Notes: generated by a model not told the origin, from the sequence alone. Positions 40,542 through 56,726 are shown, counted from the stretch's first letter. The stretch is 64,000 nt of DNA from Candidatus Omnitrophota bacterium (GCA_014729775.1 WJJJ01000025.1:53790-117789); one strand, 5' to 3'. Numbers and translations: made by a program.

Positions 40542-41585
40542 GTGAAGTATACGCTGGGACAGATCAATGAGATGATCCAGGGCGCGCTGGTCGGGGATCC
40601 TCAAGTGCTGATTACCGGTATCTCCGGCATTAAGGAGGCCAGACAAGGGGACATTACCTTTCTCGCCAATTCGAAATACCTGCCTCTGATGAATTCTACC
40701 AAAGCGTCGGCGATTATTGTTTCGCGGGAGATTGAACAGTCTTCTAAACCGATCATTCAGACGGAAAACCCGTCATTGGCGTTCGCGAAAGTAGTGAATA
40801 TCGTGGCGCCCAACGACATGAGCCATCCTAAAGGAATCCATCCTACGGCGGTCATCTCTCCGAATGCCCGTTTAGGAAAAAACGTTTCCGTAGGAGCCTA
40901 TACGATCATCGAGAGCGAGTGTGAGATCGGAGACGGGAGCATCATTTACGGAGGGTGTTTTTTAGGGCGTGAGGTGCGGATCGGCAAGGATTGTCTGGTA
41001 TACCCGCACGTTTCCATTCGCGAGGGAATCCGTCTGGGCAACCGGGTAATCGTACACTCCGGAGCGGTGATCGGCAGTGATGGTTTTGGATTTGCCACCG
41101 TAAAGGGGATGCAGGAAAAAATTCCTCAAATCGGGACGGTGGAAATCGAGGATGACGTGGAGATCGGTTCTAACGTGACGATTGACCGGGCGAGGTTTGA
41201 TACGACTCATATCGGTCGCGGGACCAAAATCGATAATTTGGTGCAGATTGCTCATAACGTGCATATCGGAGAGAATTGTATTATCGTAGCCCAGGCGGGG
41301 ATTTCGGGAAGCACGACCCTCGGCAAGGGCGTGATACTCGCCGGTCAGGCGGGAGTAGTCGGACATATTCAAATCGGCGACGGCGCCATTGTTGCTGCGC
41401 AGGCCGGAGTTACTAAAGCCGTTCCGGCAGGGACAAAAGTGTCCGGCTATCCGGCAAAGCCTCATGGGGAAGCAAAGCGGGTCAATGCCTGCATGCAGCG
41501 TCTGCCGCAGTTACACAAAAGGATCAAAGAACTGGAAGAGAAAATTTCACAACTGGAGAAACGATTAGAGGAGCATGATGGATAA
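40542..41585 (+). CDS. lpxD: UDP-3-O-acylglucosamine N-acyltransferase
   Basis: GTG start; N-terminal 'ITGISGIKEARQGDITFL' followed by a hexapeptide-repeat left-handed beta-helix. Confidence 0.9.
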   Translation: MKYTLGQINEMIQGALVGDPQVLITGISGIKEARQGDITFLANSKYLPLMNSTKASAIIVSREIEQSSKPIIQTENPSLAFAKVVNIVAPNDMSHPKGIHPTAVISPNARLGKNVSVGAYTIIESECEIGDGSIIYGGCFLGREVRIGKDCLVYPHVSIREGIRLGNRVIVHSGAVIGSDGFGFATVKGMQEKIPQIGTVEIEDDVEIGSNVTIDRARFDTTHIGRGTKIDNLVQIAHNVHIGENCIIVAQAGISGSTTLGKGVILAGQAGVVGHIQIGDGAIVAAQAGVTKAVPAGTKVSGYPAKPHGEAKRVNACMQRLPQLHKRIKELEEKISQLEKRLEEHDG

Positions 41586-43772: not shown

Positions 43773-44609
43773 ATGACTGCGAAAACAAAGATCGGGATCA
43801 TTGCCGGGAACCGTTTACTGCCGGTTGTTCTTGCCGCGGCAATCCGGCGGCAATGTCCTGAGTGTGAGATTATCGCGCTGTGCTTTCGGGGAGAGACTTC
43901 CTCACGGATCAAACGATTTGCTGACCGGACTCATTGGCTCGTGCCCGGCCATCTCGCCCGCTTAATCCATCTCTTGAAAAAATACGACCTTACCCGCTGT
44001 ATCCTGGCGGGGCAAATTTCCCCATTGAGAATTTTTCAGCCGCGGTACTGGGATAGGGCATTCCGCGAGTTGGTGGACCAAATCGAGGATTTTCGTCCGC
44101 ATACGGTTTTTTCTGGCTTAATTCACAGACTGGAACAGGAAGGGATCGTCTTTCTCGATTCGACGGAGTATCTGCGGGATCTGCTCGCTCATCCGGGTCC
44201 CATGAACAAAATGATACCGGATGCACATCTGCAGCGTGATATTGTGTTCGGTTCCCGCGTGGCGGCGCGCTACGTGGAGCTTGATATCGGGCAAACCCTG
44301 GTAGTGAAAAATAAGACCGTTGCCGCCCTCGAATCGCTGGAGGGGACTGACCGTACGCTGATCCGGGGGGCTCGGCTGGCCGGCCGCAATTGCGTCGCAG
44401 TAAAATACAGCCGAAAGCATCAGGATCTACGGTTTGACGTGCCGGTTATCGGACTGCGGACGTTGCGCGTGCTGCGCCGTATGCGGGCCGGCGCGTGCGT
44501 ACTGGAAGCCGGCCGGGTTATTATGCTGGAAAAACCAAAGTTTCTGCGCGCAGCCGCACGTTACGGGATCCCCGTGGTGGGTACGGAAGCAGGAGCAGGT
44601 GATGGCTAA
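43773..44609 (+). CDS. lpxI: UDP-2,3-diacylglucosamine pyrophosphatase, LpxI family (DUF1009)
   Basis: 278 aa. N-terminal 'KIGIIAGNRLLPVVLAAAIRR' and C-terminal 'RFDVPVIGLRTLRV' match LpxI/DUF1009. Immediately follows lpxA (stop/start overlap), as in lpxA-lpxI-lpxB loci. Confidence 0.65.
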   Translation: MTAKTKIGIIAGNRLLPVVLAAAIRRQCPECEIIALCFRGETSSRIKRFADRTHWLVPGHLARLIHLLKKYDLTRCILAGQISPLRIFQPRYWDRAFRELVDQIEDFRPHTVFSGLIHRLEQEGIVFLDSTEYLRDLLAHPGPMNKMIPDAHLQRDIVFGSRVAARYVELDIGQTLVVKNKTVAALESLEGTDRTLIRGARLAGRNCVAVKYSRKHQDLRFDVPVIGLRTLRVLRRMRAGACVLEAGRVIMLEKPKFLRAAARYGIPVVGTEAGAGDG

Positions 44610-46506
44610 ATACCCGCAGGTGCTCTTGTGGGCAGCTGCCCTCTGTCTGACGGTGCTTCCCGGTGAGGGATACGGTCAGAAAAAGCCTTCACATCTGAAT
44701 CTGGCTTTATTATTCAAGGAGAACGGAGAATACGTCCGCGCCGCGCAAATACTTGACCGTGCGCAAGAGGATGATACTCCGGAAGTTCTCCGGATACGGG
44801 CGGAGGTCGCGGTGATGAGCGGTGATCCCCGGACGGCGTTGGAGTACTATGCCCTCCTGCCGCGCCGGGAATGGTATGACCATATTTATCAGGGGTTGGC
44901 CTATGAACAGCTCGACGCGCCGGAGCGCGCCTGCCGTGCATACGAAGAATCGCTCGGAAAGAAACGGTCATCGATTCCTCTCTACCGCCTGGCCAAACTT
45001 CATCTGCGGAAAAAAAGATACGCCGCTGCCAGAAAATATTTTCAGGAACTGTTGGACCTTGATCCCAGTTACCGGATCGCCTATTATCATTTAGGCCGCA
45101 TTTTCCTGAGGGAAAAGGAGTACGCGTCGGCATACCGGATGCTTTCCAAAGCGGTTCGTTTCTTCCCGGAACGGGATCCGGCCGAGACGGCGCTGGCCGA
45201 GGCCAGGACGGGATTGGGCGAAGAGTATTTTCGCGCACGGAAAAAGGAGAAAACCGCAAAAAGAAAAAAGATAGAGATACCGGATTATCTGCCTCATACC
45301 GGAAAAATGGTACGGGTGGGGCTCGCAGAGGGACTCGAAACGCTTACCTTGCGCTGCGGACGCGCCTGTATTTTTTCCGACGGTACCCGGCAATTTACCG
45401 GGTCATCAGGGGTGTTCTACACCCTGGAAACCCGCCGCGGCGGGCTCATTCTGCGTCCGGCCGAAACCCAGACAATCCTGACGCGTTTCAGCGGACCAGT
45501 GACGGTCCGTTCATCACAGTCCGAAAGAGGAGAGCGATCGTTGTTTTACCTGTTCGACGTGATCTACGGCCGGGACGCCTATTGGCACAAGCGGATTGAC
45601 CGGATGTACCGGGGAAATCTGCGCGTGATCCCCCGGGGCAAGACCTTCACCGTAGTAAACCACCTGACTCGTCAGGAATACCTGTACGGAGTACTGCCCG
45701 CCGAAATCCTGTCCGGTTCTCCGGTCGAAGCGCTCAGAGCGCAATCGGTTGCCGCCAGAACGATTGCCAGCCGGAATCTCGGCCGCCACGAAAAACAGGG
45801 GTACGACTTTTGCGCTGATACCCATTGCCAGGTCTATCAGGGATATTCGCACGAAACGGACCGCACCAATCGAGCGGTTGACGCGACGCGGAATGAAGTG
45901 CTCTATTTCGGGTCCGAGCCCATTGAAACACTGTACCATTCAAATTGCGGAGGATGCGTACGGTCTGATGCCTACGGAAAAAGAAAGTATTTCGCGCATG
46001 CGTTCGATTTCGACAACGGCAGGTATAAGGGGCTCACTCCCGGCGAATTCACTCCATTTTTGGAAGAGCTTTGGTTTTACGAAGAACCAAAAGCCTTTTC
46101 TTACCGGCAAAGCACCAAATATCGCTGGCAGAGAGCCTATGACGCCGAAGATTACCGATTCGCGTTCGGTGATGATTTGAGGAATGTGCGTATTCGTACT
46201 GGAGAAAAGGATGAATGTTTTCATCACGATACGCTGGAAATCACGAGTGGCGGCGAACAGGTTACGGTAAGGGGGGACTGGAGAATAAGGAAATACTTTC
46301 AGGGGTTACGATCGAGCGCGTTCAAGTTCGAGCAGGTCAGGTTTCCTTCCGATGCCGATGCGGTCCTGCTGTTCTGGGGAGCCGGATTCGGCCACGGAAC
46401 GGGCCTGTGTCAGGACGGGGCAGTGGGAATGGCCAGCCAAGGTTTCTCCTACGAGAAGATTCTTACCCACTATTATCCCCATACCCGGTTGATTAAGGAA
46501 GAGTAA
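44602..46506 (+). CDS. secreted TPR + SpoIID/LytB-domain protein
   Basis: ATG at 44602 with signal peptide 'MAKYPQVLLWAAALCLTVLPGEG'. N-terminal TPRs; C-terminal 'AARTIASRNL...YDFCADTHCQVYQGY...LYHSNCGG' SpoIID/LytB signature. Confidence 0.75.
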   Translation: MAKYPQVLLWAAALCLTVLPGEGYGQKKPSHLNLALLFKENGEYVRAAQILDRAQEDDTPEVLRIRAEVAVMSGDPRTALEYYALLPRREWYDHIYQGLAYEQLDAPERACRAYEESLGKKRSSIPLYRLAKLHLRKKRYAAARKYFQELLDLDPSYRIAYYHLGRIFLREKEYASAYRMLSKAVRFFPERDPAETALAEARTGLGEEYFRARKKEKTAKRKKIEIPDYLPHTGKMVRVGLAEGLETLTLRCGRACIFSDGTRQFTGSSGVFYTLETRRGGLILRPAETQTILTRFSGPVTVRSSQSERGERSLFYLFDVIYGRDAYWHKRIDRMYRGNLRVIPRGKTFTVVNHLTRQEYLYGVLPAEILSGSPVEALRAQSVAARTIASRNLGRHEKQGYDFCADTHCQVYQGYSHETDRTNRAVDATRNEVLYFGSEPIETLYHSNCGGCVRSDAYGKRKYFAHAFDFDNGRYKGLTPGEFTPFLEELWFYEEPKAFSYRQSTKYRWQRAYDAEDYRFAFGDDLRNVRIRTGEKDECFHHDTLEITSGGEQVTVRGDWRIRKYFQGLRSSAFKFEQVRFPSDADAVLLFWGAGFGHGTGLCQDGAVGMASQGFSYEKILTHYYPHTRLIKEE

Positions 46507-46870
46507 TCGCGAGAATTCTGGGGAGGAATAACAGGATGCCCACGCATATCGCGCCGGCGCACACTACGAGGACCGCGCCGGAAGCAATATCCTTGATGAT
46601 CTTGATCCGGGGATCGGTTTCGGGATTGATCATGTCACAGAGGTATTCGACGACCGTGTTAAAGACTTCGGATACGAATACGGTGAGAATGACGAGCAGG
46701 AGAATGACCATTTCCAGAAGCGAACAGCGAAGCCATATCGCGAATACATATACCGCGAATCCGATCAGAAAAATGATCCGGGCGTTGCGTTCGGTGCGTA
46801 CGACGATCAAGAGTCCACGCAGCGCGCTGAGGAGACTTTCCCGAATGGTGTGATGATGCCAGCTTTTCAT
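46493..46870 (-). CDS. dgkA: diacylglycerol kinase / undecaprenol kinase (DgkA family)
   Basis: 125 aa, 3 TM; 'ERNARIHF'-like 'ERNARIIF' and 'EVFNTVVEYLCD' DgkA motifs. Confidence 0.8.
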   Translation of the reverse strand: MKSWHHHTIRESLLSALRGLLIVVRTERNARIIFLIGFAVYVFAIWLRCSLLEMVILLLVILTVFVSEVFNTVVEYLCDMINPETDPRIKIIKDIASGAVLVVCAGAICVGILLFLPRILAITLP

Positions 46871-48261
46871 GGATTATTCCCGGTAAGGAAGCCGGAAATC
46901 TCCTCCGGCGTGCGGACTTCCCCGATACATTCCCGCCACATTTTTTGTGTTTCCATACACAGATAGACCGGGGTAGTGCCGTCCTTTTCTCTGAGCCATT
47001 CTCTCATTTTTGCGTAGATTTGTCTACGGATGAATTCCGGATAACGCAACTTTCCGTCGCCGCCGAGAAGCAGTTCCCCGTAGAAGAGGGTGCTTTCGGG
47101 AAATCTCTGCTCCCATATTGATTTGATCTTCCGGTGGGCGCGCAGGGTGCCCAGGCTGATCCAGGCAAAGGGCGGCCGCAGGTATGAATACAGCTTCGAT
47201 ACCAGTGCCCGATACTCTGTTTCCCATCCCGGCATGTGGATCAGCGGGTCAAAGTGAAAGGCGATCCGATATCCGGCCTGCCGGACTTTTCGGGCAGCTT
47301 CGAGCCTCGCGTCGAGGGACGCCGTGCCGGGCTCTTCATGTGCGGTAATATCCGGCGGGTTCAACGACCAGGAGATGACGATGTTATCCGCCGGGGACAT
47401 CCGGAGGATGTTGTCGATACAGGCACTTTTTGTTTTGAACTCAAAGTATACGTCCGGTTTGGCGCGGAAATACGGAATCAGCTGCAAAGAATACTCCGTG
47501 AGCGGGTCCAGCGCGAGAGAATCGCAAAATTCACCGGTTCCCAGCCGCAGCGGGCCGGGACGCGTGCGCAGAAAAGAATCAAATCGTTCGAAGAAATCGG
47601 ACACGTTGGCCGGGAGAATGATCCCGGGAACATTTGCGTAATGCTGCAGAAAACAGTAAGAGCAGTCGTAGGGGCAGCCGAATCCGAGGTTGAGTATCCA
47701 GTATCCGCAGCGCACGTGGCTTTTGGTACAGGGACACGGTTTATGAAAATCCCAGGGCTCCCGGACGAGAAAGAGCAGGGGGGTTTTCACATTCAGGGGA
47801 GAAAATCGATGCGTGCGGGAATATTCCCGGAGAGATTTCAATGTGGTGAGCGGGGTGTCCGGATAGCGCTCCCGTACGCGCCGGGCGAGATCGCTTTTCC
47901 GCACCGAGGATTCCATGTATATCTGTGCCGGCCTGAATTCGGCAAATCGTCCAGATTCGGGTGCGGGCAGCGGCGGTAACGGGGATGAGTACACCTCAGA
48001 CGGCGGGATGGAGATACGCGCGCTGGTTTCGGGGAATCTCCGGGCGATGAGCACCCGGCGCAGTGCCACAAAGGCGTCCCGCGGCGAATATCGGCGAAGA
48101 TCGAGCTCTTTCTGCGCTTCCTCGAGAATTTCGTGCGGCGAAACGCGTTCGCGAACGGATATTTCGTGTGCAAGCCGTGCGACATCGCGCAGTTTATTTG
48201 ATTCCAGACGCATCCCGAATCGCGATTCGACGTCATGTTGTATTGAAGCTTCATTTGTCAT
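46867..48261 (-). CDS. radical SAM protein, spore-photoproduct-lyase (SplB/COG1533) family, with ~190-aa N-terminal extension
   Basis: 'KPCPCTKSHVRCGYWILNLGFGCPYDCSYCFLQ' contains the CxxxCxxC cluster in SPL-family context. Start overlaps dgkA (operon). Confidence 0.6.
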   Translation of the reverse strand: MTNEASIQHDVESRFGMRLESNKLRDVARLAHEISVRERVSPHEILEEAQKELDLRRYSPRDAFVALRRVLIARRFPETSARISIPPSEVYSSPLPPLPAPESGRFAEFRPAQIYMESSVRKSDLARRVRERYPDTPLTTLKSLREYSRTHRFSPLNVKTPLLFLVREPWDFHKPCPCTKSHVRCGYWILNLGFGCPYDCSYCFLQHYANVPGIILPANVSDFFERFDSFLRTRPGPLRLGTGEFCDSLALDPLTEYSLQLIPYFRAKPDVYFEFKTKSACIDNILRMSPADNIVISWSLNPPDITAHEEPGTASLDARLEAARKVRQAGYRIAFHFDPLIHMPGWETEYRALVSKLYSYLRPPFAWISLGTLRAHRKIKSIWEQRFPESTLFYGELLLGGDGKLRYPEFIRRQIYAKMREWLREKDGTTPVYLCMETQKMWRECIGEVRTPEEISGFLTGNNP

Positions 48262-48369
48262 AATTCTTGCGGTGTGCTGTCTGCGTGCACGATAAATTGA
48301 TTTATGCTATTATAGAATATCTGACAAATAAGTAAAGCAGTTGAAAAAAGCAAAAAAAGGAGAGGCCGT

Positions 48370-48567
48370 ATGAATAAGTGGCAGGCGATCGGGTTTTTCA
48401 GCCCGGCGGTGATCTTTTTCCTTACCGGAATTATCTTTTTCGCGCTCGGCAGCGTCGCCGCGGATCCGGTACTTCGCCAGATCGGATCATTCTGGATGCC
48501 GCTGGGCTTGCTTTATCTGTTGCTCATGCTTTTTTTATATTCTCGGAAGAAAAAAGGCTCTGGATGA
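48370..48567 (+). CDS. small membrane protein (65 aa, 2 TM)
   Basis: Strong RBS 'aaaaaggagagg' 5 nt before the ATG; two hydrophobic helices. Confidence 0.5.
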   Translation: MNKWQAIGFFSPAVIFFLTGIIFFALGSVAADPVLRQIGSFWMPLGLLYLLLMLFLYSRKKKGSG

Positions 48568-48590
48568 ACCGTAAGACAGGCGAGGAGAAA

Positions 48591-49493
48591 CTACCGGCGC
48601 CGCGAAGAGAGCGACTCGAACAGTTTGTTCTCCAGTTCTGCGGTCATTGCTTCATATTTGCCGGCCTCTTCGAATTTCCTTCGTTTACGGGCTCCCTGCG
48701 TAAAAATTGAAACTTTTTTCTTGAGCGCGTCAAAGGCAAGAAGCTTTTGAGTTTCGGTCAGGCGCGTTTTTCCCACGAACAGGTTGTGGAGCGCTTGAAT
48801 ACGGAACCTGTCCATTGCCGGGTAGCGGCGCGATTGCTGGTCCGGATGGCCGCCCTCTTTGATCGTGAGCGCTTCCGGGAGCAGATAGACAGGGAATTTC
48901 GCCGAAACTCTCAGCCAGAAATCGTAATCCTCACACGCCGGCAGATTTTCGTCGAATGTTCCCAGCAGCTGAAAAATACCTTTTTGCACTGCCGCAGTGG
49001 AGATACTGATACAGCACAGTTCCAGCGCCTGACGGAACACCCATCCCGAAGGTTTCTTATGGTAGCTTTTCTGCGGCAGGAGCGTCCCGTTGCGGTACCA
49101 GACTTCTTCGGTATGGAAAACACGGTACTCGGGAAAATTCTGGATATGTTCGTGCATAAGTTCAAGCTTATGCGTCCGGAACCGGTCGTCGGAATCGAGG
49201 AAGCAGACATACTCTCCCCGGGCATGGCGCAGGCCCAGGTTACGGGCTGCGGAAACGCCGCGATGGTCCTGTTGAAAGGCATTGATCTGGGGGTGGGGCA
49301 GATACTGAGCGATCAAATCGCGGCTGTCGTCGGTGGAGCCGTCGTCGACGATGATCAGTTCGTAATCGGTAAAGGTCTGTTCCAGTACCGATTCCATGGC
49401 GATCTTGAGAAAATCACTACGGTTGTAAGCGGGGATAATTACGCTGAAGAAGGGCGCTTCATTCATTCTGGTATGTTCCTCAATTGAAATCAT
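48591..49493 (-). CDS. family 2 glycosyltransferase
   Basis: 'FFSVIIPAYNRSDFLKIAMESVLEQTFTDYELIIVDDGSTDDS' GT2 N-terminus; 'CFLDSDD' DxD. Confidence 0.85.
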   Translation of the reverse strand: MISIEEHTRMNEAPFFSVIIPAYNRSDFLKIAMESVLEQTFTDYELIIVDDGSTDDSRDLIAQYLPHPQINAFQQDHRGVSAARNLGLRHARGEYVCFLDSDDRFRTHKLELMHEHIQNFPEYRVFHTEEVWYRNGTLLPQKSYHKKPSGWVFRQALELCCISISTAAVQKGIFQLLGTFDENLPACEDYDFWLRVSAKFPVYLLPEALTIKEGGHPDQQSRRYPAMDRFRIQALHNLFVGKTRLTETQKLLAFDALKKKVSIFTQGARKRRKFEEAGKYEAMTAELENKLFESLSSRRR

Positions 49494-49807
49494 ATTATAA
49501 GTGAAAACCGATTCGAGCGCAAGGAGGATGGAGAGAAAAAACCAATATTGAGGTGGTATTTTTGAAATAAATTATGGTAAAATATGATGCATGTGTGATC
49601 TGCATCCACGGGGTGATCTGTTTCCGCCTGAAAAGAAGGACGCACAGGCACGCTCCCTCGCGCCCGCTTTCAGGGATGAGATGCCGCGAGCGCGCCGTTT
49701 AACACCCTGTCTGTGCCTGATAAAATCTCCTCGGGAAGCAGAAGGCCTGTGATGTCAATGGGGTGATATCTGTGGCGGCAATGAACAAAAAATGAGGGGA
49801 GGAAAGC

Positions 49808-50017
49808 ATGCAGCATCAAAACTGGAAATGCCCCAAATGCGGCAATGAGCAATTCGAAACCGACCAGTTTCAGGCCACCGGAGGAATGTTCGCCAAGATC
49901 TTTGACGTGCAGAATAAGAAATTTTCCACGGTGACGTGTGACCGATGCCAGTACACCGAGATCTACCGCGCCGCAACTGGTTCGCTGGGGAACGTGTTTG
50001 ATTTCTTTACCAGCTGA
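49808..50017 (+). CDS. small zinc-ribbon protein (69 aa)
   Basis: 'CPKCG...CDRC' four-Cys ribbon; RBS 'gaggggagg'. Confidence 0.55.
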   Translation: MQHQNWKCPKCGNEQFETDQFQATGGMFAKIFDVQNKKFSTVTCDRCQYTEIYRAATGSLGNVFDFFTS

Positions 50018-50070
50018 GTTCCATGCGGGTATTTTGCGCCGGATGAACGGAATTTTTCTTATTTCAAAGG

Positions 50071-50493
50071 ATGGATGAATCGCGTGAGAGAACGTCGCTG
50101 AGGAATTTTCTTCTTGTGCTGGGAATCCTGCTGGCGGCATGGGCAGGGCTGTGGTATTTTCATTTTCGTTATGATCAATCAATGAGAGTGACTGCCACCG
50201 CGTTTAATTCCGTACCGGAACAGACCGACCGTCAGCCGAATACCGCGGCCTGGGGGAACCGGCTTAAACCCGGTGATAAGGCGATCGCCGTCTCCCGTGA
50301 TCTTATCGACCGGGGCCTGAAAAACGGGACACCGGTCAGGATTGAGGGTCTGTTCGGGACGTATACCGTACGCGACAAAATGAACAAACGATATCGCCGC
50401 AGGATCGATATCTATATGGGCGCAGATAGGCAACGGGCCATGAAGTGGGGAAAACAAAAGGTGCGTATCCGCTGGCCGGGTGATGACCGATGA
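50071..50493 (+). CDS. 3D-domain protein (MltA-like/stationary-phase-survival-type, N-terminal TM anchor)
   Basis: 'VTATAFNSVPEQTDRQPNTAAWGNRLKPGDKAIAVSRDLIDRGLKNGTPVRIEGLFGTYTVRDKMNKRYRRRIDIYMG' matches the 3D-domain pattern (TAY...G...iAvd...GT.V.IEG.G.Y.V.D.G....IDIYM). Confidence 0.7.
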   Translation: MDESRERTSLRNFLLVLGILLAAWAGLWYFHFRYDQSMRVTATAFNSVPEQTDRQPNTAAWGNRLKPGDKAIAVSRDLIDRGLKNGTPVRIEGLFGTYTVRDKMNKRYRRRIDIYMGADRQRAMKWGKQKVRIRWPGDDR

Positions 50494-50929
50494 GCAGATG
50501 AAGAGAACCCGTGCACACCGGAAATTTTACCGCCACGGCCTGAGGTTCGAATGTCAAGGCGGGGGCAAGTGCTGTACCGCCGGCACGCAGGAAGGGTACG
50601 TATACCTGACGCTGGCTGACCGGCAGAATATCGCGCGCTATCTGGGAATTTCCCTGGCGGTATTTACCAGAAAATACTGCCGGCGGGAACAGGGGATGTG
50701 TTATTTACGCCGGCTGAAACCATGCTGCCAGTTTTTGGACAATAATCGATGCGCGATTTATCCGGTCCGGCCGATCCAGTGCGAGACCTGGCCGTTCTGG
50801 CCGGACAATCTTACCCCCGAGGCCTGGCGGCGCGCGAAGCGGTTTTGCCCGGGAATCGGGAAAGGACGGATCCATTCCCTTCAGGAGATAGAACGGTTAA
50901 TGACACTGCAGGCGCGGCTGGAAACATAA
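50480..50929 (+). CDS. YkgJ-family cysteine-cluster protein (UPF0153, putative Fe-S/Zn-binding)
   Basis: 'CQGGGKCCTAG' ... 'CCQFLDNNRCAIYPVRPIQCETWPFWP' is the characteristic CxxxxCC...CC...C...C arrangement. Confidence 0.7.
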   Translation: MMTDEQMKRTRAHRKFYRHGLRFECQGGGKCCTAGTQEGYVYLTLADRQNIARYLGISLAVFTRKYCRREQGMCYLRRLKPCCQFLDNNRCAIYPVRPIQCETWPFWPDNLTPEAWRRAKRFCPGIGKGRIHSLQEIERLMTLQARLET

Positions 50930-50939
50930 AGGAGGCAAG

Positions 50940-51419
50940 ATGCGCAGGCTGTTCTTTATCGGGATTATGATACTCGGATTATGCGGAGCACGCGGCCAGG
51001 CATTGGACTGGAAAATTACGGAATTCTGGATGAATGCCGATCAACTTTTATCTCCGGGAGACATGGTGTGCCGCAGTATTATCGATGCGTCCGCAGCGAC
51101 GGTCGGGAGCGGCGGCGCACGCGAAGCCCGGATGGAACATCAGGTGATGTATATAGGATATGAGCCTGGCGATCCCGGGCAGGCGCGGTTTCTGCGTACC
51201 AGTACCTGGCGTAAGGACACCGCGAAATTTTACCAGCCGGGAACCAAGGACGTGCGTGAATGGACCCAGCCCTTTGACCGTCAGGGGATGACTGTGCTTG
51301 ACTTTGCGTATTTTCCCGCGATCAAAGTCACCTTGACCGATCGTGAGACGGAGACCATCCGGGTTGCGGCCGACGTTGACCAGTGGAAGGCAGAATTGCC
51401 GCCGGTACGGGATTATTGA
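50940..51419 (+). CDS. secreted hypothetical protein
   Basis: RBS 'aaggagg'; signal peptide 'MRRLFFIGIMILGLCGARGQA'. No recognisable domain. Confidence 0.55.
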   Translation: MRRLFFIGIMILGLCGARGQALDWKITEFWMNADQLLSPGDMVCRSIIDASAATVGSGGAREARMEHQVMYIGYEPGDPGQARFLRTSTWRKDTAKFYQPGTKDVREWTQPFDRQGMTVLDFAYFPAIKVTLTDRETETIRVAADVDQWKAELPPVRDY

Positions 51420-51488
51420 CCCTCAGGGACCGCAAGAAGGCTCTTGTCTTCCGTACCCCCGGCGGAAAGATGATTACCTTTTTTCCCG

Positions 51489-52376
51489 CTATCCCGGAGT
51501 ATCGCCGGGAAGGCCGCCGGCGAGAGGATTTTGATACGTAAGGGACCTGTCATAGAACCGGCGGAATTCCGGTACTATGAGATACAGCCGCAGTCCGGTT
51601 CTGCGGTTCAGCGCTCTCATGCGGACGGCCTGATCCGCCGCAAACGAATCATAGCGGTGTTTGGCGGCGTATATCTCCTTCATTTTTTGCGCCGCGGCGC
51701 GTTCCCTTATCTGCTCGATTCGTTCCCCCACCTGGAGGAAATTTCCCTGGATAGGATGGTACAGTTCCACGTCAATCTCTTTCACTCCTTTCGGAAGCAG
51801 GCGCAGGATTGTGTCCAAGGAGGAAAGAAAAGGGAAAAAAGGGCCGGCGTGCACCCGCAACGAAATCCCGAAACGGAGAATTTCGGCCAGTGTATCTATT
51901 CGATGGTGAAGGTGAGGAGACGCGCCTTCCAAGGCGCGAATATGATGATTACTGCTCAAATTGAAGGTGAAAAATATCCGGTTCTCCCGGTTCCTGCTCA
52001 GTAAAGGCAGGCAGGAACGAATCAAATGCGATTTCGTCAAAATCGTCACCGGAATTCCATATCGGTCTAGAATCTTCAGAATTTTTTCGGTCAGACGGAA
52101 ACGGGCTTCCGCATACTGAAAACATTCGGTAGTTGAGCCCAGCAGTACCCGCCGCGGCCGCCGCATTCGGAGTTCCCGGGTCAATAGTTCCGGCGCATTT
52201 ATTTTCGCTTCTACACAGGCACGCCTGCTACCCGCGCTATGCGCCTTTCGGGCGTAGCAGTAGACGCAGTCAAACTGACATCCGCGATAAGGATTGATTA
52301 CCGCGTCGGCCAGACTGATTTGCGTAGGAGAAAGCACCCGTTGAGCCCGTATCTCTTTCCACTCGCAGAAGCTCAT
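51489..52376 (-). CDS. radical SAM protein, COG1533 'DNA repair photolyase'/SplB-like family
   Basis: 'NPYRGCQFDCVYCYARK' is the hallmark COG1533 motif (CxxxCxxC); 295 aa. Confidence 0.7.
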   Translation of the reverse strand: MSFCEWKEIRAQRVLSPTQISLADAVINPYRGCQFDCVYCYARKAHSAGSRRACVEAKINAPELLTRELRMRRPRRVLLGSTTECFQYAEARFRLTEKILKILDRYGIPVTILTKSHLIRSCLPLLSRNRENRIFFTFNLSSNHHIRALEGASPHLHHRIDTLAEILRFGISLRVHAGPFFPFLSSLDTILRLLPKGVKEIDVELYHPIQGNFLQVGERIEQIRERAAAQKMKEIYAAKHRYDSFAADQAVRMRALNRRTGLRLYLIVPEFRRFYDRSLTYQNPLAGGLPGDTPG

Positions 52377-53647
52377 CGCGGAACCTTCCCGGGCTGGATC
52401 AAGTTGTTGATATATCTGGGGGTGAACGGAATTTTCTCGGCGGCGACCAGCGCGGCCAGCCGGTCGGCCCGGTGACGCGCCCTACGCGAAGGGAACCGCG
52501 GTGCGGCCCGCCGGAGGTCATAATCGAGATAGGGGTTGATCTGTGCGATTTTCGGAATGAGCCGTTTCTGCGCAATAAGGAACCGGCAGGTCTGTGCGAA
52601 ATCCCGCGCGCGTTCGCCGGGAAATCCGGCGATCAGACTGATCTCAAAGTGAATACCAGCGGTGCGCAGGGTGCGGAAAAAGGAACGTGCGCCGCCGGCG
52701 GTAACGCCTTTTCTCATTTTCTGTAATACTGCATCAGAGCCGCTCTCCAGGCCGATAAACAGGTTGCTGCACCCGCTTTTTTTCAATAAACGGGCCAGGG
52801 CAACGGGAAATGAAGGCTGGATTTTCATCTGGGCTTCCCAGCGTATCGAAAGCCTGGTGTCGATAATCATCCGGCAGAATTCTTCGAGCCATTGGAAAGA
52901 ATGATTGAACAGTGAATCGCAGAACACGAAATAGCGCCGCCGGTAACGCCGGTGTAACCGGATAATCTGTTCACCCACATAAGAGGGGCTGTGGATGCGA
53001 TAGGAACGGAAGAGGAACCTTTCGGTGCAGAAGGCGCACTCTCCGGGACAGCCGCGCGAAGAGAGAAGAGGAAGCACAGGGGGGATCCGAGAGGGCGCCA
53101 GATAATCGAAGTCATAGTGCGGCAGGCGGTCAAGATCGGAAAGTTCATCGTGCACGATCCGCGCTCGATCGTCGCCCCGGATGATCCGGGCCGACGGCAA
53201 CTCGCCTTCGCCGATGACCCACTGTGCCCGCAGTCCGGGAAACTTTCCGCTCAGGTAGAATCGTAAAGTCTGGGGTCCGCCGCAGAAAATTTTCACCTTT
53301 GGGTTTCGCCGAACGATACGATCGGCGATGTCCAGGACACAGGGAGTATTCCGCTGAGTGAGCGTAAACCCCACCGCGTCCGATTCCGCTGCGGTACATT
53401 CGACTTTTTCCATCAGCAGGGGAACCGCGTTGCGCAGACGGGCGAACAGCGACCGCTCAAACGCCGGATCGACTTTCAGCCATCGCGGCCGCGTCTCAGG
53501 CAGACGGCGGAACGCAATCTGGTTGAGATCGAGGATCCGCACTTCTGCCGTACAGGTATGTTCCAGATACGCTTTCAGCAGTACCGGTGCCAGCGGCGGC
53601 GGGGTGATCCAGGAGGGCGGGGCATAGATCAAGGTTACTATTTTCAT
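52373..53647 (-). CDS. B12-binding-domain radical SAM protein (class B)
   Basis: N-terminal Rossmann-like B12-binding region ('KIFCGGPQ'); 'SSRGCPGECAFCTE' CxxxCxxC. ATGA overlap with the downstream rSAM gene (operon). Confidence 0.7.
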   Translation of the reverse strand: MKIVTLIYAPPSWITPPPLAPVLLKAYLEHTCTAEVRILDLNQIAFRRLPETRPRWLKVDPAFERSLFARLRNAVPLLMEKVECTAAESDAVGFTLTQRNTPCVLDIADRIVRRNPKVKIFCGGPQTLRFYLSGKFPGLRAQWVIGEGELPSARIIRGDDRARIVHDELSDLDRLPHYDFDYLAPSRIPPVLPLLSSRGCPGECAFCTERFLFRSYRIHSPSYVGEQIIRLHRRYRRRYFVFCDSLFNHSFQWLEEFCRMIIDTRLSIRWEAQMKIQPSFPVALARLLKKSGCSNLFIGLESGSDAVLQKMRKGVTAGGARSFFRTLRTAGIHFEISLIAGFPGERARDFAQTCRFLIAQKRLIPKIAQINPYLDYDLRRAAPRFPSRRARHRADRLAALVAAEKIPFTPRYINNLIQPGKVPR

Positions 53648-53726
53648 GTTTTTTTATGAGAAGTTGCGTTACAATAAATATCCAGGACTGTATTGTACTA
53701 TAACGGGGAACTTCACAAAAATCAAG

Positions 53727-54860
53727 ATGCGCCCATTACTGTACATCCATATTCCGTTTTGCGACAGAGGCAAATGCGCTTATTGCGATTTCTACAGCGT
53801 GCCCTATGAACCCCGGCAGGCCGCGGCGCTCGTCGAAAGCTACGGGCGCGAACTCCGGATGACCACTTCTCATTTTCGCACGATTTATATCGGCGGAGGA
53901 ACCCCCTCGGTCTTATCCCGATCAGCGTGGGCGACGCTGCTCAACGCCTGCCGCCGGCACGCCTCCGGCGCGGAAGAATGGACGGTCGAGATGAATCCTG
54001 AACACGTGACCGGGACGCTGGCGCATATGCTGAAAGAGTCCGGGGTGAACCGGATCAGTCTGGGAGTACAGTCATTCTGCCGGCAGAAATTACGGTGCCT
54101 CGGCCGCAGGCATTCTCCGTCGCAAGCCGCTGAGGCGGTGAATATCGTCCGGAAGGCAGGGATCCAAAATGTCAGCATTGATTTACTGTTCGGCGTATGG
54201 GAAGAATCCCTTAAAGAATGGAGGCGGGAACTTGCCGGTGCACTCACCCTTCCCCTGACCCATCTTTCTCTCTACGCGCTGACCTATGAAAGGGATACGC
54301 TCCTTGGCCGCCGCCTTTCACGGGGGGACATTACGCCCCTCGCGGACGATATCGTGGCAGAGCAGTATCTGGCAGCCGCTGATCTCCTGCGTTCCTGCGG
54401 GTTCGTACGCTATGAGATCTCCAATTTTGCCCGGCCTGGTCGTGAATGCCTTCATAATTTGGGATATTGGCAGGGATTTCCCTATCTTGGAATCGGTCCG
54501 TCGGCGGTTTCTTTTCTGAACGGAGTTCGTATGCGCCGAACTGCGGAGGTGTCCCGTTATCTCGCGCTGGACGGAGGCGCGGCGGCCGTATGCGAGCGGG
54601 AAAAACTTCCTCCCGCGTACCGGGCCCGCGAAGCCGCCGCAGTATTGATACGAACCAGTCAGGGGATCGATTTTGCGGCTTTCCGCCGCCGCTACGGATA
54701 CGACCTTTTGAATACGACGCGGCCGGGCCTGCAGGAATTGGTAGGGGCCGGAATTCTGGAATGGACCGGCTCTCCGGCACGCCCCACCGGCGTACGGCTT
54801 ACTTCCGAAGGCTTCCTGCGTGCCGATACCGCTTCCAGTGCCCTGCTTTCACACACCTGA
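53727..54860 (+). CDS. hemW: radical SAM heme chaperone HemW (HemN-like, oxygen-independent coproporphyrinogen-III-oxidase-like)
   Basis: 'LYIHIPFCDRGKCAYCDFYS' plus 'IGGGTPS' HemW/HemN signature. ATG at 53727; the track start at 53646 overlaps the divergent gene. Confidence 0.85.
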   Translation: MRPLLYIHIPFCDRGKCAYCDFYSVPYEPRQAAALVESYGRELRMTTSHFRTIYIGGGTPSVLSRSAWATLLNACRRHASGAEEWTVEMNPEHVTGTLAHMLKESGVNRISLGVQSFCRQKLRCLGRRHSPSQAAEAVNIVRKAGIQNVSIDLLFGVWEESLKEWRRELAGALTLPLTHLSLYALTYERDTLLGRRLSRGDITPLADDIVAEQYLAAADLLRSCGFVRYEISNFARPGRECLHNLGYWQGFPYLGIGPSAVSFLNGVRMRRTAEVSRYLALDGGAAAVCEREKLPPAYRAREAAAVLIRTSQGIDFAAFRRRYGYDLLNTTRPGLQELVGAGILEWTGSPARPTGVRLTSEGFLRADTASSALLSHT

Positions 54861-54994
54861 CTGAAAATATTCCGGATTCGTTGATTTCACGGGAGAAGTG
54901 TTCATTTAAAGGTAGATTTTTTACGCATAGATGATATAATCTATCGGATATTGGGGCGCGCCGGAGCAGGGGTTACTTTTCGGTTCAGATACGA

Positions 54995-55981
54995 ATGAAA
55001 CTACGCAAGAAACGGGTGCAGCACATACTGTCGCAGTTTGCCGGGAAACACTGTCTCGTCATCGGCGATCTGATTTTAGATCACTATCTGCTGGGCAACG
55101 TGGATCGCATCTCTCCGGAAGCTCCTGTTCCGGTAGTATGGGCCTCCGGAGAAGAATTTCTCTGCGGGGGCGCCGCCAACGTCGGACGTAACTTAACCGC
55201 ATTGGGCGCGTCTTCCTCACTATGCGGAATTACCGGCAGGGATTATTACGGAAAACAGCTTTGGACAATTATCGAACAGGAGGGAATCGGGACGCGGTTG
55301 ATCCGCAGAGAGAAGCTTCGCCCGACTACGCTCAAGACACGGGTAATTGCCCATCATCAACAAGTAGTAAGGGTGGACCGCGAAGCGACCGATCCGCTGC
55401 CTTCTCGGGTGAATCGCGCGCTGGTGAAAAAGGTGCGTGCGTGCCTCGATCTGTTTGATGCGGTCATTATCGAAGACTACGGAAAAGGGGTGGTGACTGC
55501 CGAATTGGTGCAGGAATTAGTTGCCCTGTGTCGCGAAAAGAATAAAATAATCACGGTCGATCCCAAACAGGATCATTTTGATTATTACCGTCACGTAACC
55601 GCGCTGACGCCGAATTTACACGAAGCGGCACAGGCGGTGCACATGCGGGGAAGTGAAGCCGGTGAAGTGGCGGCGATCGGCCGTGCGGTACTTGATGCCC
55701 TCCAGCCGAAGGCACTGCTGCTCACTCTCGGCGAGAAGGGGATGATGCTCTTCTCCCAAGACCGTATCACCCATATCCCTGCCTATCCGGTAGAAGTGTA
55801 TGATGTCACGGGAGCGGGGGATACCGTAATCGCCGCGTTTACGCTCAGTTTAAGCGCGGGCGCGACATTTGAAGAAGCGGCGTCGATCGCGAATTTTGCC
55901 GCCGGCATAGTAGTAGGACGCAGAGGCGCGGCCGTAACCGATGCTGAAACCCTGCGAAGGAGGATTTATGAGCACATATAG
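54995..55981 (+). CDS. hldE: D-glycero-beta-D-manno-heptose-7-phosphate kinase (HldE/RfaE domain I, PfkB family)
   Basis: 'VIGDLILDHYLLGNVDRISPEAPVPVV' and 'DVTGAGDTVIAAF' ribokinase-family motifs; 328 aa with no adenylyltransferase domain. Confidence 0.8.
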   Translation: MKLRKKRVQHILSQFAGKHCLVIGDLILDHYLLGNVDRISPEAPVPVVWASGEEFLCGGAANVGRNLTALGASSSLCGITGRDYYGKQLWTIIEQEGIGTRLIRREKLRPTTLKTRVIAHHQQVVRVDREATDPLPSRVNRALVKKVRACLDLFDAVIIEDYGKGVVTAELVQELVALCREKNKIITVDPKQDHFDYYRHVTALTPNLHEAAQAVHMRGSEAGEVAAIGRAVLDALQPKALLLTLGEKGMMLFSQDRITHIPAYPVEVYDVTGAGDTVIAAFTLSLSAGATFEEAASIANFAAGIVVGRRGAAVTDAETLRRRIYEHI

Positions 55982-56726
55982 CGTTATCGGGGTAATTCCG
56001 GCCCGCTACCGGTCAACCCGCCTTCCGTTTAAATTACTGCGGGAGGTGGCCGGCAAACCTTTGCTGCAGCATACCTGGGAGAACGCGTCCCAGGCGCGGA
56101 TGCTGGATAAATTACTCATTGCCTGTGATGACGAACGGATCGAAGAAGCCGCCCGAGACTTCGGCGCGGAAGTAGTCCCGACGTCGGTACAGCACACCTC
56201 TGGTACCGATCGTATCGCCGAGGCGGTCCGCGATATCGACACTCAGATCATCATCAACATCCAGGCCGACGAACCTATGATCCAGCCGTTTGTGATTAAC
56301 CGTCTCGCGACCGAAATGCGGGAGAACCGAGATCTCATGATGGCCACGGTCAAAAAAAAGATCGAGCGAAAAGAGGAAGTATACGATCCCGGGGTGGTCA
56401 AAGTCGTGTGCGGAAAAGACGACTTCGCCCTTTATTTCTCCCGTTACGCCGTTCCTTACGTCAGGGACGGACAGAAGCTGGCGCACTCGTTCTATAAACA
56501 TGTCGGTATTTACGCCTACACCAAAGATTTTTTATTCACCTTCAAGAATCTGCCTCCTTCGCAACTGGAACAGGCGGAAAAGCTGGAACAGCTGCGAGCC
56601 CTCGAAGCCGGATTCAAGATCAGGGTAATAGAAACCAACTGTGACTGCCGGGGAGTCGATACGGAAGAAGATCTGGCCGCGGTCACCCGGCTGCTCGCGG
56701 AAAAAAAGGCGGAAGATGAACACTGA
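55968..56726 (+). CDS. kdsB: 3-deoxy-manno-octulosonate cytidylyltransferase (CMP-KDO synthetase)
   Basis: ATG at 55968 with RBS 'gaaggagg'. 'VIGVIPARYRSTRLPFKLL' and 'IINIQADEPMI' motifs. Confidence 0.9.
   Translation: MSTYSVIGVIPARYRSTRLPFKLLREVAGKPLLQHTWENASQARMLDKLLIACDDERIEEAARDFGAEVVPTSVQHTSGTDRIAEAVRDIDTQIIINIQADEPMIQPFVINRLATEMRENRDLMMATVKKKIERKEEVYDPGVVKVVCGKDDFALYFSRYAVPYVRDGQKLAHSFYKHVGIYAYTKDFLFTFKNLPPSQLEQAEKLEQLRALEAGFKIRVIETNCDCRGVDTEEDLAAVTRLLAEKKAEDEH

Follow-up and report, generated by a model that had tools for sequence, protein, structure and literature searches.

Five minus-strand genes in a 64,000-nt stretch of Candidatus Omnitrophota bacterium GCA_014729775.1 (WJJJ01000025.1:53790-117789, here called the window) constitute one vertically inherited Omnitrophota operon. 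Its order is B12-type radical SAM enzyme (B12-rSAM), small SPL-superfamily radical SAM enzyme (small rSAM), GT2 glycosyltransferase, long SPL-fold radical SAM enzyme (long or SPL-like rSAM), and dgkA; in this genome, lineage-specific plus-strand fillers cut it into three units. The best overall explanation, which we offer tentatively, is that these enzymes modify a phosphate-bearing sugar or glycoconjugate for the cell envelope.

One inherited operon with two separable modules

The interval at positions 46493 to 54860 is flanked as the sequence-only reading had described, with lpx genes upstream (bamA, lpxD, lpxC-fabZ, lpxA, lpxI, and spoIID) and kds/lpt genes downstream (a pfkB-family kinase gene, kdsB, kdsA, a kpsF-like gene identified through synteny with locus L001, kdsC, lptC, and lptB). 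The open reading frames (ORFs) that it had listed are all present (Table 1), and its family assignments stand with the exceptions given below, the first being that the interval contains a single GT2 and not several. The five operon genes are the only non-shadow minus-strand genes of the otherwise codirectional window. Both ATGA stop/start overlaps, one between the B12-rSAM and small rSAM genes and the other between the SPL-like gene and dgkA, were verified; the small rSAM gene thus has no promoter of its own.

Table 1. Features of the interval, in operon order followed by the plus-strand ORFs
Feature	Position	Strand	Length	Family score	Placement
B12-type rSAM	52373-53647	-	424 aa		Module A, gene 1; first gene of the ancestral operon
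Small SPL-superfamily (COG1533/DUF5131-like) rSAM	51489-52376	-	295 aa		Module A, gene 2
GT2 (GT-A fold)	48591-49493	-	300 aa	PF00535, 113.1 bits (threshold 23.3)	Module B, gene 1
Long SPL-fold rSAM	46867-48261	-	464 aa	PF20903, 87 bits	Module B, gene 2
dgkA	46493-46870	-	125 aa	PF01219, 100.5 bits (threshold 22.3)	Occasional last operon gene
ORF with two hydrophobic segments	48370-48567	+	65 aa		Between SPL-like gene and GT2; ORF list only
Zn_ribbon_13 (Pfam family)	49808-50017	+			Filler
Basic protein	50071-50493	+	140 aa		Filler
YkgJ/CxxCxxCC (Pfam family)	50480-50929	+			Filler
Protein with signal-peptide-like N terminus	50940-51419	+	159 aa		Filler
hemW	53646-54860	+		TIGR00539, 232 bits (cutoff 205)	

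The arrangement is identical in two complete Omnitrophota genomes. In a set of 80 GTDB species loci, the small rSAM gene lies downstream of the B12-rSAM gene in 59 of 69; the corresponding counts for the window's own clade are 28 of 29 (small rSAM) and 16 of 19 (SPL-like rSAM). In 21 of 25 loci of that clade the GT2 gene follows the small rSAM gene, and the ORFs often overlap or all but abut. At least 15 loci have ORFs spaced in this way. Of 46 metagenome loci in a reciprocal search from the SPL-like gene, 35 have GT2 immediately upstream; in most relatives the two genes overlap or lie a few bases apart, and in four cases they are fused (P0281, P0285, P0343, and L042). The tight pairing of the COG1533-like rSAM with the B12-rSAM, whose absence from other genomes would have refuted the sequence-only reading, holds across genomes and phyla, and the proposal of an uncharacterized multienzyme system is supported.

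The operon consists of two separable modules, A (B12-rSAM and small rSAM) and B (GT2 and the N-domain/SPL-fold rSAM), which are found apart in loci L101, L102, L106, L119, and L134. Module A is also found in Elusimicrobiota, Spirochaetota, and Auribacterota, where an MTAN-like nucleosidase often accompanies it, and module B also occurs, coupled to murI, in a high-GC lineage. The SPL-like gene stands alone in Nitrospinaceae, and in another Omnitrophota clade it is preceded by an MTAN-like protein, not a GT2. Since the modules occur apart, they need not share one substrate.

The plus-strand genes at 49808 to 51419 are variable filler that lies outside the system and splits the operon halves. The small plus-strand proteins had been counted among the members of the system, but in 165 related loci none has a homolog near the cluster (within 10 kb); the insertion point is variable, and other genomes carry unrelated genes at this junction. 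The 140-aa protein had been called a 3D-domain protein, for which we found one weak match (E = 0.005, to the EntB C terminus) and no support in Pfam or a PDB sequence search. The 65-aa ORF matched no family and has no homolog in related loci; it is variable filler or possibly no gene at all. The hemW gene, which encodes a radical SAM heme chaperone, is divergent to the B12-rSAM gene in 28 of 30 loci belonging to the window's clade, compared with only 1 of 41 more distant ones, and is probably a conserved divergent neighbor linked by synteny only. Its TIGR00539 alignment begins at residue 32, and translation probably starts at Met28 (∼53727).

The enzymes and their nearest relatives

The B12-rSAM matches PF04055 (52.6 bits) and, below the gathering score of 32.1, PF02310 (25.3 bits), with which most of its homologs are recorded. 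Residues C200, C204, and C207 do not vary among 27 homologs, nor do the GGP and GxGE motifs. No NCBIfam model came near its cutoff. The top family and PDB matches are all class B members; in the PDB they are AprD4 and, at E = 1e-8, the glutamine C-methyltransferase of methyl-coenzyme M reductase (MCR), 9ccb. With class B enzymes (9CCB, AprD4 6FD2, PhpK, RiPP C-methyltransferases, HpnJ, and HpnR), the window enzyme shares the GGP, GxGE, and CxxxCxxC motifs and probably also the domain order, in which a Rossmann-type B12 domain lies N-terminal to the rSAM core. The likeness is limited to that core (approximately residues 170 to 360), and the equivalog models all fall far under their cutoffs (PhpK, 99 versus 600 bits; HpnJ, 74 versus 578, more precisely 73.8 versus 577.6; HpnR, 40 versus 650). 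The suggested analogy with hopanoid methylases is not supported by these scores; HpnP is absent among the matches, and no shc or hpnH gene was found in any related locus.

The best structural match of the small rSAM is SPL, and its nearest families are PA0069 (NF033668; 100.2 bits), Rv2578c (NF038135; 98.9 bits), and TIGR04470, "radical SAM mobile pair protein B" (53 bits). These families resemble it in size and fold class, but it reaches only a quarter to a third of their cutoffs (360 for PA0069 and 430 for Rv2578c), with only residues 24 to 191 aligned, over ∼165 of the ∼320 to 350 PA0069 and Rv2578c profile positions. Its translational coupling to a B12-rSAM is not described for any of the three, and to our knowledge none has a known reaction. 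A type II ortholog scores 114 bits against TIGR04470, nearly full-length. The two SPL-type proteins of the interval, described as SplB-like paralogs, are no more than distant relatives: hhalign relates them with a probability of 96%, at 18% identity over 144 columns.

The GT2 carries a DxD motif (in FLDSDD). Among PDB entries it best matches K4 chondroitin polymerase 2z87 (E = 4e-35, residues 8 to 201), its nearest relatives are polysaccharide glycosyltransferases, and it weakly matches SunS-type S-glycosyltransferases.

The long rSAM has the SPL fold over the whole protein, preceded by a family-specific N-terminal helical domain (residues 1 to 82) and a linker (residues 83 to 112). This extension, first put at ∼190 aa, is ∼85 to 110 aa, comprising a five-helix bundle (residues 2 to 82) and the linker, with SPL homology starting at ∼102 to 111; in the high-GC lineage the domain is a separate ORF. 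The cluster motif C196-x3-C200-S-Y202-C203, with Tyr between the second and third Cys, is invariant in 28 family members. Scores against the SplB models are low (TIGR04070, 91.8 bits with a cutoff of 400; TIGR03886, 51.9 bits with a cutoff of 437).

In SPL, Cys140 is the H donor, Arg193 and Glu268 are lesion-base ligands, Arg273 and Lys309 are phosphate ligands, and Arg304-Tyr305 form the hairpin tip (PMC3467042); Cys140 is Geobacillus (G.) thermodenitrificans numbering, equivalent to Cys141 in Bacillus (B.) subtilis, and clostridia have an alternative H donor at position 76. In the long rSAM family, the C140 position is an invariant Glu244, and Cys246, two residues on, varies among other members (Ser, Gly, Ala, Thr, or Ile). 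Two conserved serines, Ser297 and Ser369, take the places of the thymine ligands R193 and E268, while the phosphate ligand R273 is retained as invariant Arg374. Four additional conserved Cys residues are present, of which Cys176 and Cys178 adjoin the position of SPL Ser76, bordering the active site; the set is a probable extra metal or Fe-S site in an active-site loop. The HMM alignment does not reach the hairpin region, which, read tentatively from the model's secondary-structure string, appears short, with a Gly-x-Asp tip in place of Arg-Tyr. Judged by these residues, the long rSAM is not an SP lyase and has probably retained phosphate binding.

Assignment to genuine SplB would have counted against the sequence-only reading, but neither SPL-like protein qualifies as one, given the SplB scores and the replaced residues. 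Unlike SplB (PDB 4FHC/4FHD; TIGR04070 and PF20903), the long rSAM also has the five-helix domain and the four extra Cys, is paired with and sometimes fused to a GT2, and is hosted here by presumably nonsporulating Omnitrophota metagenome-assembled genomes. The sole SpoIID-family gene here sits in a lipopolysaccharide context. We know of no sporulation genes in Omnitrophota. Public records label members of the family "spore photoproduct lyase."

From its match to 100 of 102 PF01219 profile positions and its character as a small polytopic membrane protein, the dgkA product is assigned to the prokaryotic diacylglycerol/undecaprenol kinase family. Of 18 species loci in the window's clade, 7 have dgkA downstream of the SPL-like gene, as do 7 of 42 metagenome loci, giving the link a penetrance of 17 to 39%.

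Alternative substrates

Nucleic acid or nucleoside chemistry is the alternative that survives best, although we consider it unlikely. The targets of the two SPL-superfamily rSAMs would be a flipped-out base or nucleotide of DNA or RNA, or else a free nucleoside; the B12-rSAM would methylate the target; the GT2 would glycosylate the product, in the manner of base-J glucosyltransferase or queuosine glycosyltransferases; and the MTAN-like protein would cleave an adenosyl-type N-glycosidic bond. The structural match of the small rSAM to SPL is consistent with such a role, as are its proximity to PA0069 and Rv2578c, members of COG1533, whose genes are SOS regulated in many phyla (LexA regulation in several phyla is described in PMC4951493 and PMC8565304), the Met/Glu/Asp catalytic set kept by the MTAN-like partner, and the phosphate-ligand Arg of the long rSAM. 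The three rSAM families are all basic (median pI, 9.0 to 9.3), but so are neighboring proteins of this genome. The single-copy, phylum-wide, housekeeping distribution is typical of RNA modification genes. Against this reading, SPL R193, E268, and C140 are all replaced, and the hairpin is apparently short with an altered tip; nuclease, helicase, methyltransferase-restriction, and tRNA-binding partners were not found, nor was any defense-system match. Furthermore, the GT2 is nearest to polysaccharide enzymes, and coupling to dgkA and murI does not fit.

Modification of a membrane lipid tail or head group, one of the functions suggested by the sequence-only reading, appears rather improbable. Here, the B12-rSAM would methylate, its partner rSAM would cross-link or rearrange an alkyl or isoprenoid chain, the GT2 would add a glycolipid head, and DgkA would supply or recycle lipid, on the models of Hgm/Hbs acting on GDGTs and HpnP/HpnR acting on hopanoids. 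Class B rSAMs are often lipid modifiers, dgkA lies within the operon, and there are weak NCBIfam matches to HpnJ and to a ladderane-associated B12 rSAM (62 bits). Hbs/Hgm is a proven lipid-tailoring unit in which a B12-binding rSAM methylase and a second rSAM are encoded in one cluster and act consecutively on a single substrate; Hbs has an ∼100-aa N-terminal substrate-binding extension, and homologs are reported in Omnitrophota (bioRxiv 10.1101/2023.10.20.563219). The pairing of a B12-rSAM with an N-terminally extended second rSAM is alike in the two systems; however, Hbs, an AhbD-like SPASM/twitch enzyme that carries a COG4001 extension, has no kinship with the SPL-type partners, and its system includes no GT2. 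The resemblance lies in a possible working mode and not in family membership. Lipid-family scores are all far under their cutoffs, the lipid-synthesis genes shc, mss, tes, and elb were not seen in any of 165 loci, the rSAMs all lack membrane segments, and most loci lack dgkA.

It is very improbable that the substrate is a peptide or protein, whether RiPP-like or housekeeping, with the B12-rSAM as C-methyltransferase, the other rSAMs as epimerase or cross-linker, and the GT2 as peptide glycosyltransferase. The best B12-rSAM matches do include ApyD (90 bits) and a RiPP C-methyltransferase (85 bits) besides the MCR glutamine methylase, and the SunS-type match of the GT2 points the same way. On the other hand, we found no conserved small ORF for a precursor (the overlapping genes of contiguous operons leave no space for one, and the 65-aa ORF lacks homologs in related loci), protease, transporter, and RRE partners are absent, and phylum-wide core synteny is atypical of RiPP clusters.

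The notion of an accessory island gained by horizontal transfer, its genes functionally unrelated and true SP lyases for DNA repair among them, can be set aside almost entirely: the strand switches, tetranucleotide z values of 2.0 to 2.4 in the 50- to 56-kb windows (range, -1.8 to +2.4), and the public annotation would favor it, but the highest-z windows include the conserved hemW and pfkB genes, GC3 is 0.59 to 0.68 for every gene of the interval and of its flanks, the locus has no integrase, flanking repeats (only short imperfect ones), or adjacent tRNA (the nearest is 15 kb off), and SPL-defining residues are missing. The minus-strand genes are instead core Omnitrophota synteny, with genes, order, and chromosomal position conserved in dozens of species at 40 to 60% protein identity and only the 49.8- to 51.4-kb filler variable; this conservation, together with native composition, shows that the locus is not a foreign island.

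A putative envelope sugar pathway

In the envelope sugar reading that we favor, the GT-A glycosyltransferase would transfer a sugar from a nucleotide-sugar to an acceptor, and the SPL-fold rSAM would use a 5'-deoxyadenosyl radical to abstract hydrogen from a sugar-phosphate substrate. Methylation or some other B12-dependent radical reaction would fall to the cobalamin-type rSAM, a second radical step would be the work of the small rSAM, and DgkA would recycle the lipid involved (diacylglycerol or polyprenol).

Several observations weigh against this scheme. No component has a characterized close homolog, the SPL fold and COG1533 relatives point to nucleic acids, and we know of no SPL-fold rSAM that acts on a sugar. 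Module A has no envelope neighbors outside the window's clade, and the murI, secA, hemW, and kds neighbors may be plain housekeeping synteny. The low penetrance of dgkA, the MTAN-like protein that takes the place of GT2 in another Omnitrophota clade, and the separate occurrence of the modules also count against it.

Pathways that combine rSAMs with PNP_UDP_1 nucleosidases include hopanoid side chain synthesis (HpnH, HpnG, HpnI, and HpnJ) and the futalosine pathway (MqnE, MqnB, and MqnC). The same superfamilies, namely, rSAM, MTAN/PNP-fold nucleosidase with catalytic Glu/Asp, GT2, and B12-rSAM, co-occur here, and the best model for the nucleosidase of locus L004 is HpnG (43 bits with a cutoff of 187). 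The rSAMs, however, are unrelated to HpnH and MqnE/C, scores are well under cutoffs, and the neighborhood contains neither a squalene-hopene cyclase gene nor mqn genes; the nucleosidase may serve just to clear away 5'-deoxyadenosine and SAH as by-products.

The envelope-directed role put forward from the window alone remains plausible. The GT2 is fused to the SPL-like rSAM in some relatives, dgkA is coupled to the SPL-like gene, and murI begins 0 to 4 nt from the SPL-like stop codon in L147, L159, and L161. The operon is embedded in a bamA-lpx ... kds-lpt block, and a second glycosyltransferase set follows module A in L041 and L079. The product of this inherited Omnitrophota operon is possibly a modified cell-envelope sugar.

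Gene content and setting of the interval

Every ORF that the sequence-only reading had named between 46493 and 54860 was found in place, and Pfam and NCBIfam upheld the assigned families. The ATGA overlaps between the B12-binding radical SAM (rSAM) gene and the small rSAM gene, and between the gene for the rSAM resembling spore photoproduct lyase (SPL, or SplB) and dgkA, were verified. These four genes and the GT2 gene are the only five genuine minus-strand genes in the 64-kb window. Some details required correction: the interval encodes one GT2 rather than several, the SPL-like protein has an N-terminal extension of ∼85 to 110 residues instead of ∼190, and the 3D domain proposed for a 140-aa protein gave one weak match with nothing further in support. 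The two SPL-like proteins are related, as had been claimed, but only remotely (hhalign probability of 96%, 18% identity).

Features of the interval, with positions in the window
Feature	Position	Strand	Family support
dgkA	46493-46870	minus	Pfam/NCBIfam
SPL-family rSAM, 464 aa	46867-48261	minus	Pfam/NCBIfam
GT2	48591-49493	minus	Pfam/NCBIfam
Zn_ribbon_13 protein	49808-50017	plus	Pfam/NCBIfam
YkgJ-type CxxCxxCC protein	50480-50929	plus	Pfam/NCBIfam
Small rSAM, 295 aa; nearest Pfam/NCBIfam families PA0069, Rv2578c, DUF5131	51489-52376	minus	
B12-domain rSAM, 424 aa	52373-53647	minus	Pfam/NCBIfam
HemW	53646-54860	plus	Pfam/NCBIfam

The interval is flanked upstream by bamA, lpxD, lpxC-fabZ, lpxA, lpxI, and spoIID and downstream by a pfkB-family kinase gene, kdsB, kdsA, a kpsF-like gene (identified by synteny with the related locus L001), kdsC, lptC, and lptB. 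The lpxC-fabZ gene (41575-42891) encodes LpxC and FabZ fused into one bifunctional protein (NF009667, 414 bits), and spoIID (44434-46506) encodes a SpoIID/LytB-domain protein that has an extended TPR region at its N terminus. The longest spoIID ORF begins within lpxI, so the true start is probably a Met at ∼44605; the convergent placement of this gene relative to the operon is conserved in 13 species loci. At the other end, the longest hemW ORF starts a single base away from the oppositely oriented B12-rSAM start codon (53646-53730). Since HemW homology begins at about residue 30, the real start is probably Met28, which would probably leave ∼80 bp between the divergent genes as a promoter region, including a promoter-like site (53725-53697). 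A promoter/terminator scan placed such sites upstream of all three minus-strand units (that site, 48336-48309, and 49599-49571), with the total of promoter-like sites at chance level (5 observed versus 6.0 expected).

The mixed gene orientation had been interpreted as an accessory island. We rejected this interpretation because gene order is conserved across species, composition is native, and flanking repeats are absent. GC3 was 0.59 to 0.68 for each gene inside and beside the interval, tetranucleotide distance ranged from −1.8 to +2.4 SD with the highest values over the conserved hemW and pfkB genes, and neither repeats flanking the interval nor a nearby tRNA was found. The stretch 50001-56000 is mildly deviant in tetranucleotide composition (z of 2.0 to 2.4) despite its conserved core synteny, which may be chance.

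The small plus-strand proteins, which had been counted as members of the system, were rejected as such: none of the window's five small ORFs on the plus strand had a homologue within 10 kb of the cluster in related loci, even at E = 0.01, and they are filler. In other genomes (L006, L007, L011, L025, and L038), the gap between the small rSAM and GT2 genes carries unrelated opposite-strand genes that differ per genome and, judged by N-terminal sequence, resemble pilin, SPFH, toxin-antitoxin (MNT/HEPN), zinc ribbon, or methyltransferase proteins. The corresponding junction (49494-51488 in the window) is thus a recurrent insertion hot spot in Omnitrophota. The filler genes of L001 and a 96-aa gene of L002 had no Pfam match. 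The variable part of the interval is confined to ∼49.8 to 51.4 kb and a doubtful 65-aa ORF (48370-48567).

A conserved operon of two separable modules

A B12-rSAM profile scan of one genome per GTDB species yielded 164 relatives, of which 80 loci were kept, and homologues of every window protein were sought in their six-frame ORFs. Neighbors were counted where flanking sequence sufficed, and the clade of the window corresponds to 39 to 47% identity. The pairing of the COG1533-like small rSAM with the B12-rSAM, proposed from the window alone, proved to be conserved: the small rSAM gene lies within 3 kb downstream in 59 of 69 loci (28/29 in the window's clade and 31/40 more distant loci). Within the clade, a GT2 gene (21/25), an SPL-like rSAM gene (16/19), and dgkA (7/18) also occur nearby, and hemW is divergent from the B12-rSAM gene in 28 of 30 loci; the corresponding counts among more distant loci are 3/32, 8/28, 0/24, and 1/41.

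In the complete Omnitrophota chromosome CP070807, hemW is divergent from the B12-rSAM and small rSAM genes, which are followed by three unrelated genes and then by GT2, SPL-like rSAM, and dgkA. The dgkA-side end is convergent with spoIID, and kinase-kdsB-kdsA-kpsF-kdsC-lptC-lptB lies beyond hemW, as in the window. A second chromosome, CP070797, carries the B12-rSAM, small rSAM, and GT2 genes in one overlapping operon. At least 15 loci have overlapping or nearly abutting small rSAM, GT2, and SPL-like genes; the ancestral state is therefore one operon in the order B12-rSAM, small rSAM, GT2, and SPL-like rSAM, with or without a terminal dgkA. These comparisons demonstrate a conserved operon of two separable modules, with an intact catalytic motif in each enzyme: module A, the B12-rSAM and small rSAM, and module B, the GT2 and the long SPL-like rSAM with its N-domain.

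A reciprocal scan of metagenome contigs with an SPL-like profile gave 470 relatives (80 loci kept). A GT2 gene lies directly upstream of the full-length SPL-like gene in 35 of 46 loci, but the genes upstream include the B12-rSAM in only 8 of 22 and the small rSAM in only 10 of 25. Natural GT2-SPL fusion proteins occur (P0281, P0285, P0343, and L042). Module A is missing beside hemW-GT2-SPL in five loci, one of which (L119) has hemW-SPL alone. Conversely, module A is found without module B in Spirochaetales, Endomicrobiales and other Elusimicrobiota, Auribacterota, and other lineages, usually alongside a divergent protein of the PNP/MTAN superfamily.

Several variants of this arrangement were found. 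A second Omnitrophota clade has a tight operon without GT2 (type II), in the order B12-rSAM, small rSAM, DUF362/2x[4Fe-4S] ferredoxin, MTAN-like protein, and SPL-like rSAM. Scores of the MTAN-like proteins against the housekeeping MtnN, DeoD, and HpnG models are very low, and these proteins keep the Met-Glu and Asp residues that are catalytic in E. coli MTAN. Downstream of and convergent to the type II operon of L049 (15261-17671), a 467-aa membrane polyferredoxin-like protein and a second DUF362-like protein are encoded, as judged by sequence; these may supply electrons to the rSAMs. In L079 (8220-16696) and L041 (5985-15680), the order is B12-rSAM, MTAN-like, small rSAM, a FliN-like gene, and two GT2s, followed in L079 by a GT4; a second, divergent B12-rSAM paralogue precedes the unit on the other strand. 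In a further Omnitrophota clade, a conserved protein of ∼315 to 336 aa without a Pfam match, which may represent an extra component, is encoded directly upstream of and codirectionally with the B12-rSAM (L062, 8899-9909; same position in L048, L053, L057, L058, L060, L061, L068, L069, L083, and L085). Type IV upstream genes had no Pfam match.

An SPL-like subfamily that is shorter and lacks the N-domain was found in Nitrospinaceae, where it stands alone, and in a high-GC lineage (L147, 4218-11391; L159, 8527-15642; L161, 9974-15802). The latter has the order GT2, N-domain-like small ORF, SPL-like, murI, and secA, with the murI start 0 to 4 nt from the SPL-like stop in all three loci; no GT2 was detected in L161. 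The separate small ORF is weakly similar to the N-domain. The Nitrospinaceae protein (374 aa, four-Cys family; L154, 10046-11170; L163, 3655-4779) has no GT2 neighbor and is publicly named "spore photoproduct lyase" or "radical SAM protein"; its neighbors are dnaN-like (by N-terminal sequence), an aroF-type DAHP synthase, and an RlmI-like methyltransferase (both by Pfam).

Active sites and family membership

Where SPL has the H-donor Cys140, the SPL-like family has an invariant Glu244 (464-aa protein numbering), and the base ligands Arg193 and Glu268 of SPL are replaced by the conserved Ser297 and Ser369. The ligand of the intralesion phosphate, Arg273, is kept as the invariant Arg374. The family has four added conserved cysteines (C176, C178, C185, and C435), and the Nitrospinaceae and high-GC subfamilies have the same number, repositioned to CP[AG] plus a CC pair. 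C176 and C178 align with SPL residues 77 to 79, beside Ser76, which lies 4.2 Å from the lesion in SPL. From this alignment, we infer that the active site includes a putative auxiliary site for a metal or an Fe-S cluster. The five-helix domain at the N terminus is family specific and basic; a search of 1.8 billion representatives returned 8 weak matches only, which are probably fragments of the same family and therefore offer no clue to function.

The SPL-like protein failed SplB membership in both score and catalytic residues, and genuine SplB was rejected because those residues are replaced. PA0069 and Rv2578c membership failed by score. The B12-rSAM has class B motifs, and among solved structures it most resembles the MCR glutamine C-methyltransferase and AprD4, although the likeness is confined to the rSAM core. 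The suggested analogy to hopanoid methylases did not hold, as scores fell far short of the cutoffs and the context was wrong. Hopanoid, ladderane, and GDGT lipid-enzyme assignments were all rejected on scores far below cutoffs, and Hbs is an rSAM of another class. The GT2 is nearest to polysaccharide-building GT-A enzymes (K4 chondroitin polymerase, E = 4e-35; also TuaG, EpsD, and PglI). Operon members belong to the class B rSAM, GT2, and DgkA superfamilies at the broad level only. A defense system was rejected, PADLOC having returned only one weak, generic B12-rSAM match. Uncharacterized rSAM clusters are common; searches of the literature found no description of the cluster, of GT2-SPL fusions, or of an SPL-like family with four added Cys. 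We regard the locus as a probable tailoring operon with several rSAMs, based in part on a repurposed SPL fold; its conservation is striking, and its enzymology is likely new.

Candidate substrates and implications

As the substrate class we tentatively favor, at somewhat less than even probability, a cell-envelope sugar or glycoconjugate that carries a phosphate. The SPL-like enzyme is functionally tied to a polysaccharide-type glycosyltransferase, has lost the thymine-specific residues while keeping a phosphate ligand, and shows translational coupling, with dgkA in Omnitrophota and with murI in another lineage. The operon of the window's clade lies inside a lipid A/Kdo/Lpt block, and glycosyltransferases again follow module A in L041 and L079. 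The MTAN-like partner would clear the by-products 5′-deoxyadenosine and SAH.

The main rival, a nucleic acid or nucleoside substrate, is unlikely but deserves weight: the SPL fold, a nucleosidase partner, a housekeeping-like distribution, and SOS-regulated COG1533 relatives (PMC4951493, PMC8565304) all point to it. Protein pI is uninformative on nucleic acid binding because neighboring housekeeping proteins are equally basic. Modification of a lipid tail, suggested only by analogy with Hbs/Hgm, is distinctly improbable. We give little credence to a specific joint proposal in which the GT2 and SPL-fold rSAM, with the B12-rSAM pair, produce a hypermodified and glycosylated base of DNA or RNA without need of oxygen, as a phylum-wide bacterial rSAM equivalent of the base J pathway. 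In this proposal, a pyrimidine radical would be made and functionalized by the SPL-like enzyme instead of being repaired, and glycosylation would fall to the GT-A enzyme. Slighter still is the chance of a RiPP or protein modification role, and a RiPP cluster was rejected since no precursor gene was found. The data contradict both an island of unrelated genes and genuine SplB repair, which are scarcely credible.

Omnitrophota genomes are small (∼1.3 to 1.8 Mb in three complete chromosomes), and all records examined are metagenome or single-cell derived. A four- to five-gene operon with three rSAMs, one of the cobalamin-binding class B type, is kept in many of them, implying an important product. 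This work defines two portable, uncharacterized enzyme modules present in several phyla. To our knowledge, the SPL fold has been known only from spore DNA repair; here, it has a widespread sister family with a different active site, a putative extra four-Cys site, and a GT2 partner (directly upstream in 35 of 46 loci). The names "spore photoproduct lyase" and "DNA repair photolyase" given to these proteins in public annotation are therefore probably wrong. Should the product prove to be an envelope sugar or lipid, these bacteria would have a new structural feature and possibly a biomarker; if it is a nucleic acid modification, it would represent new chemistry.
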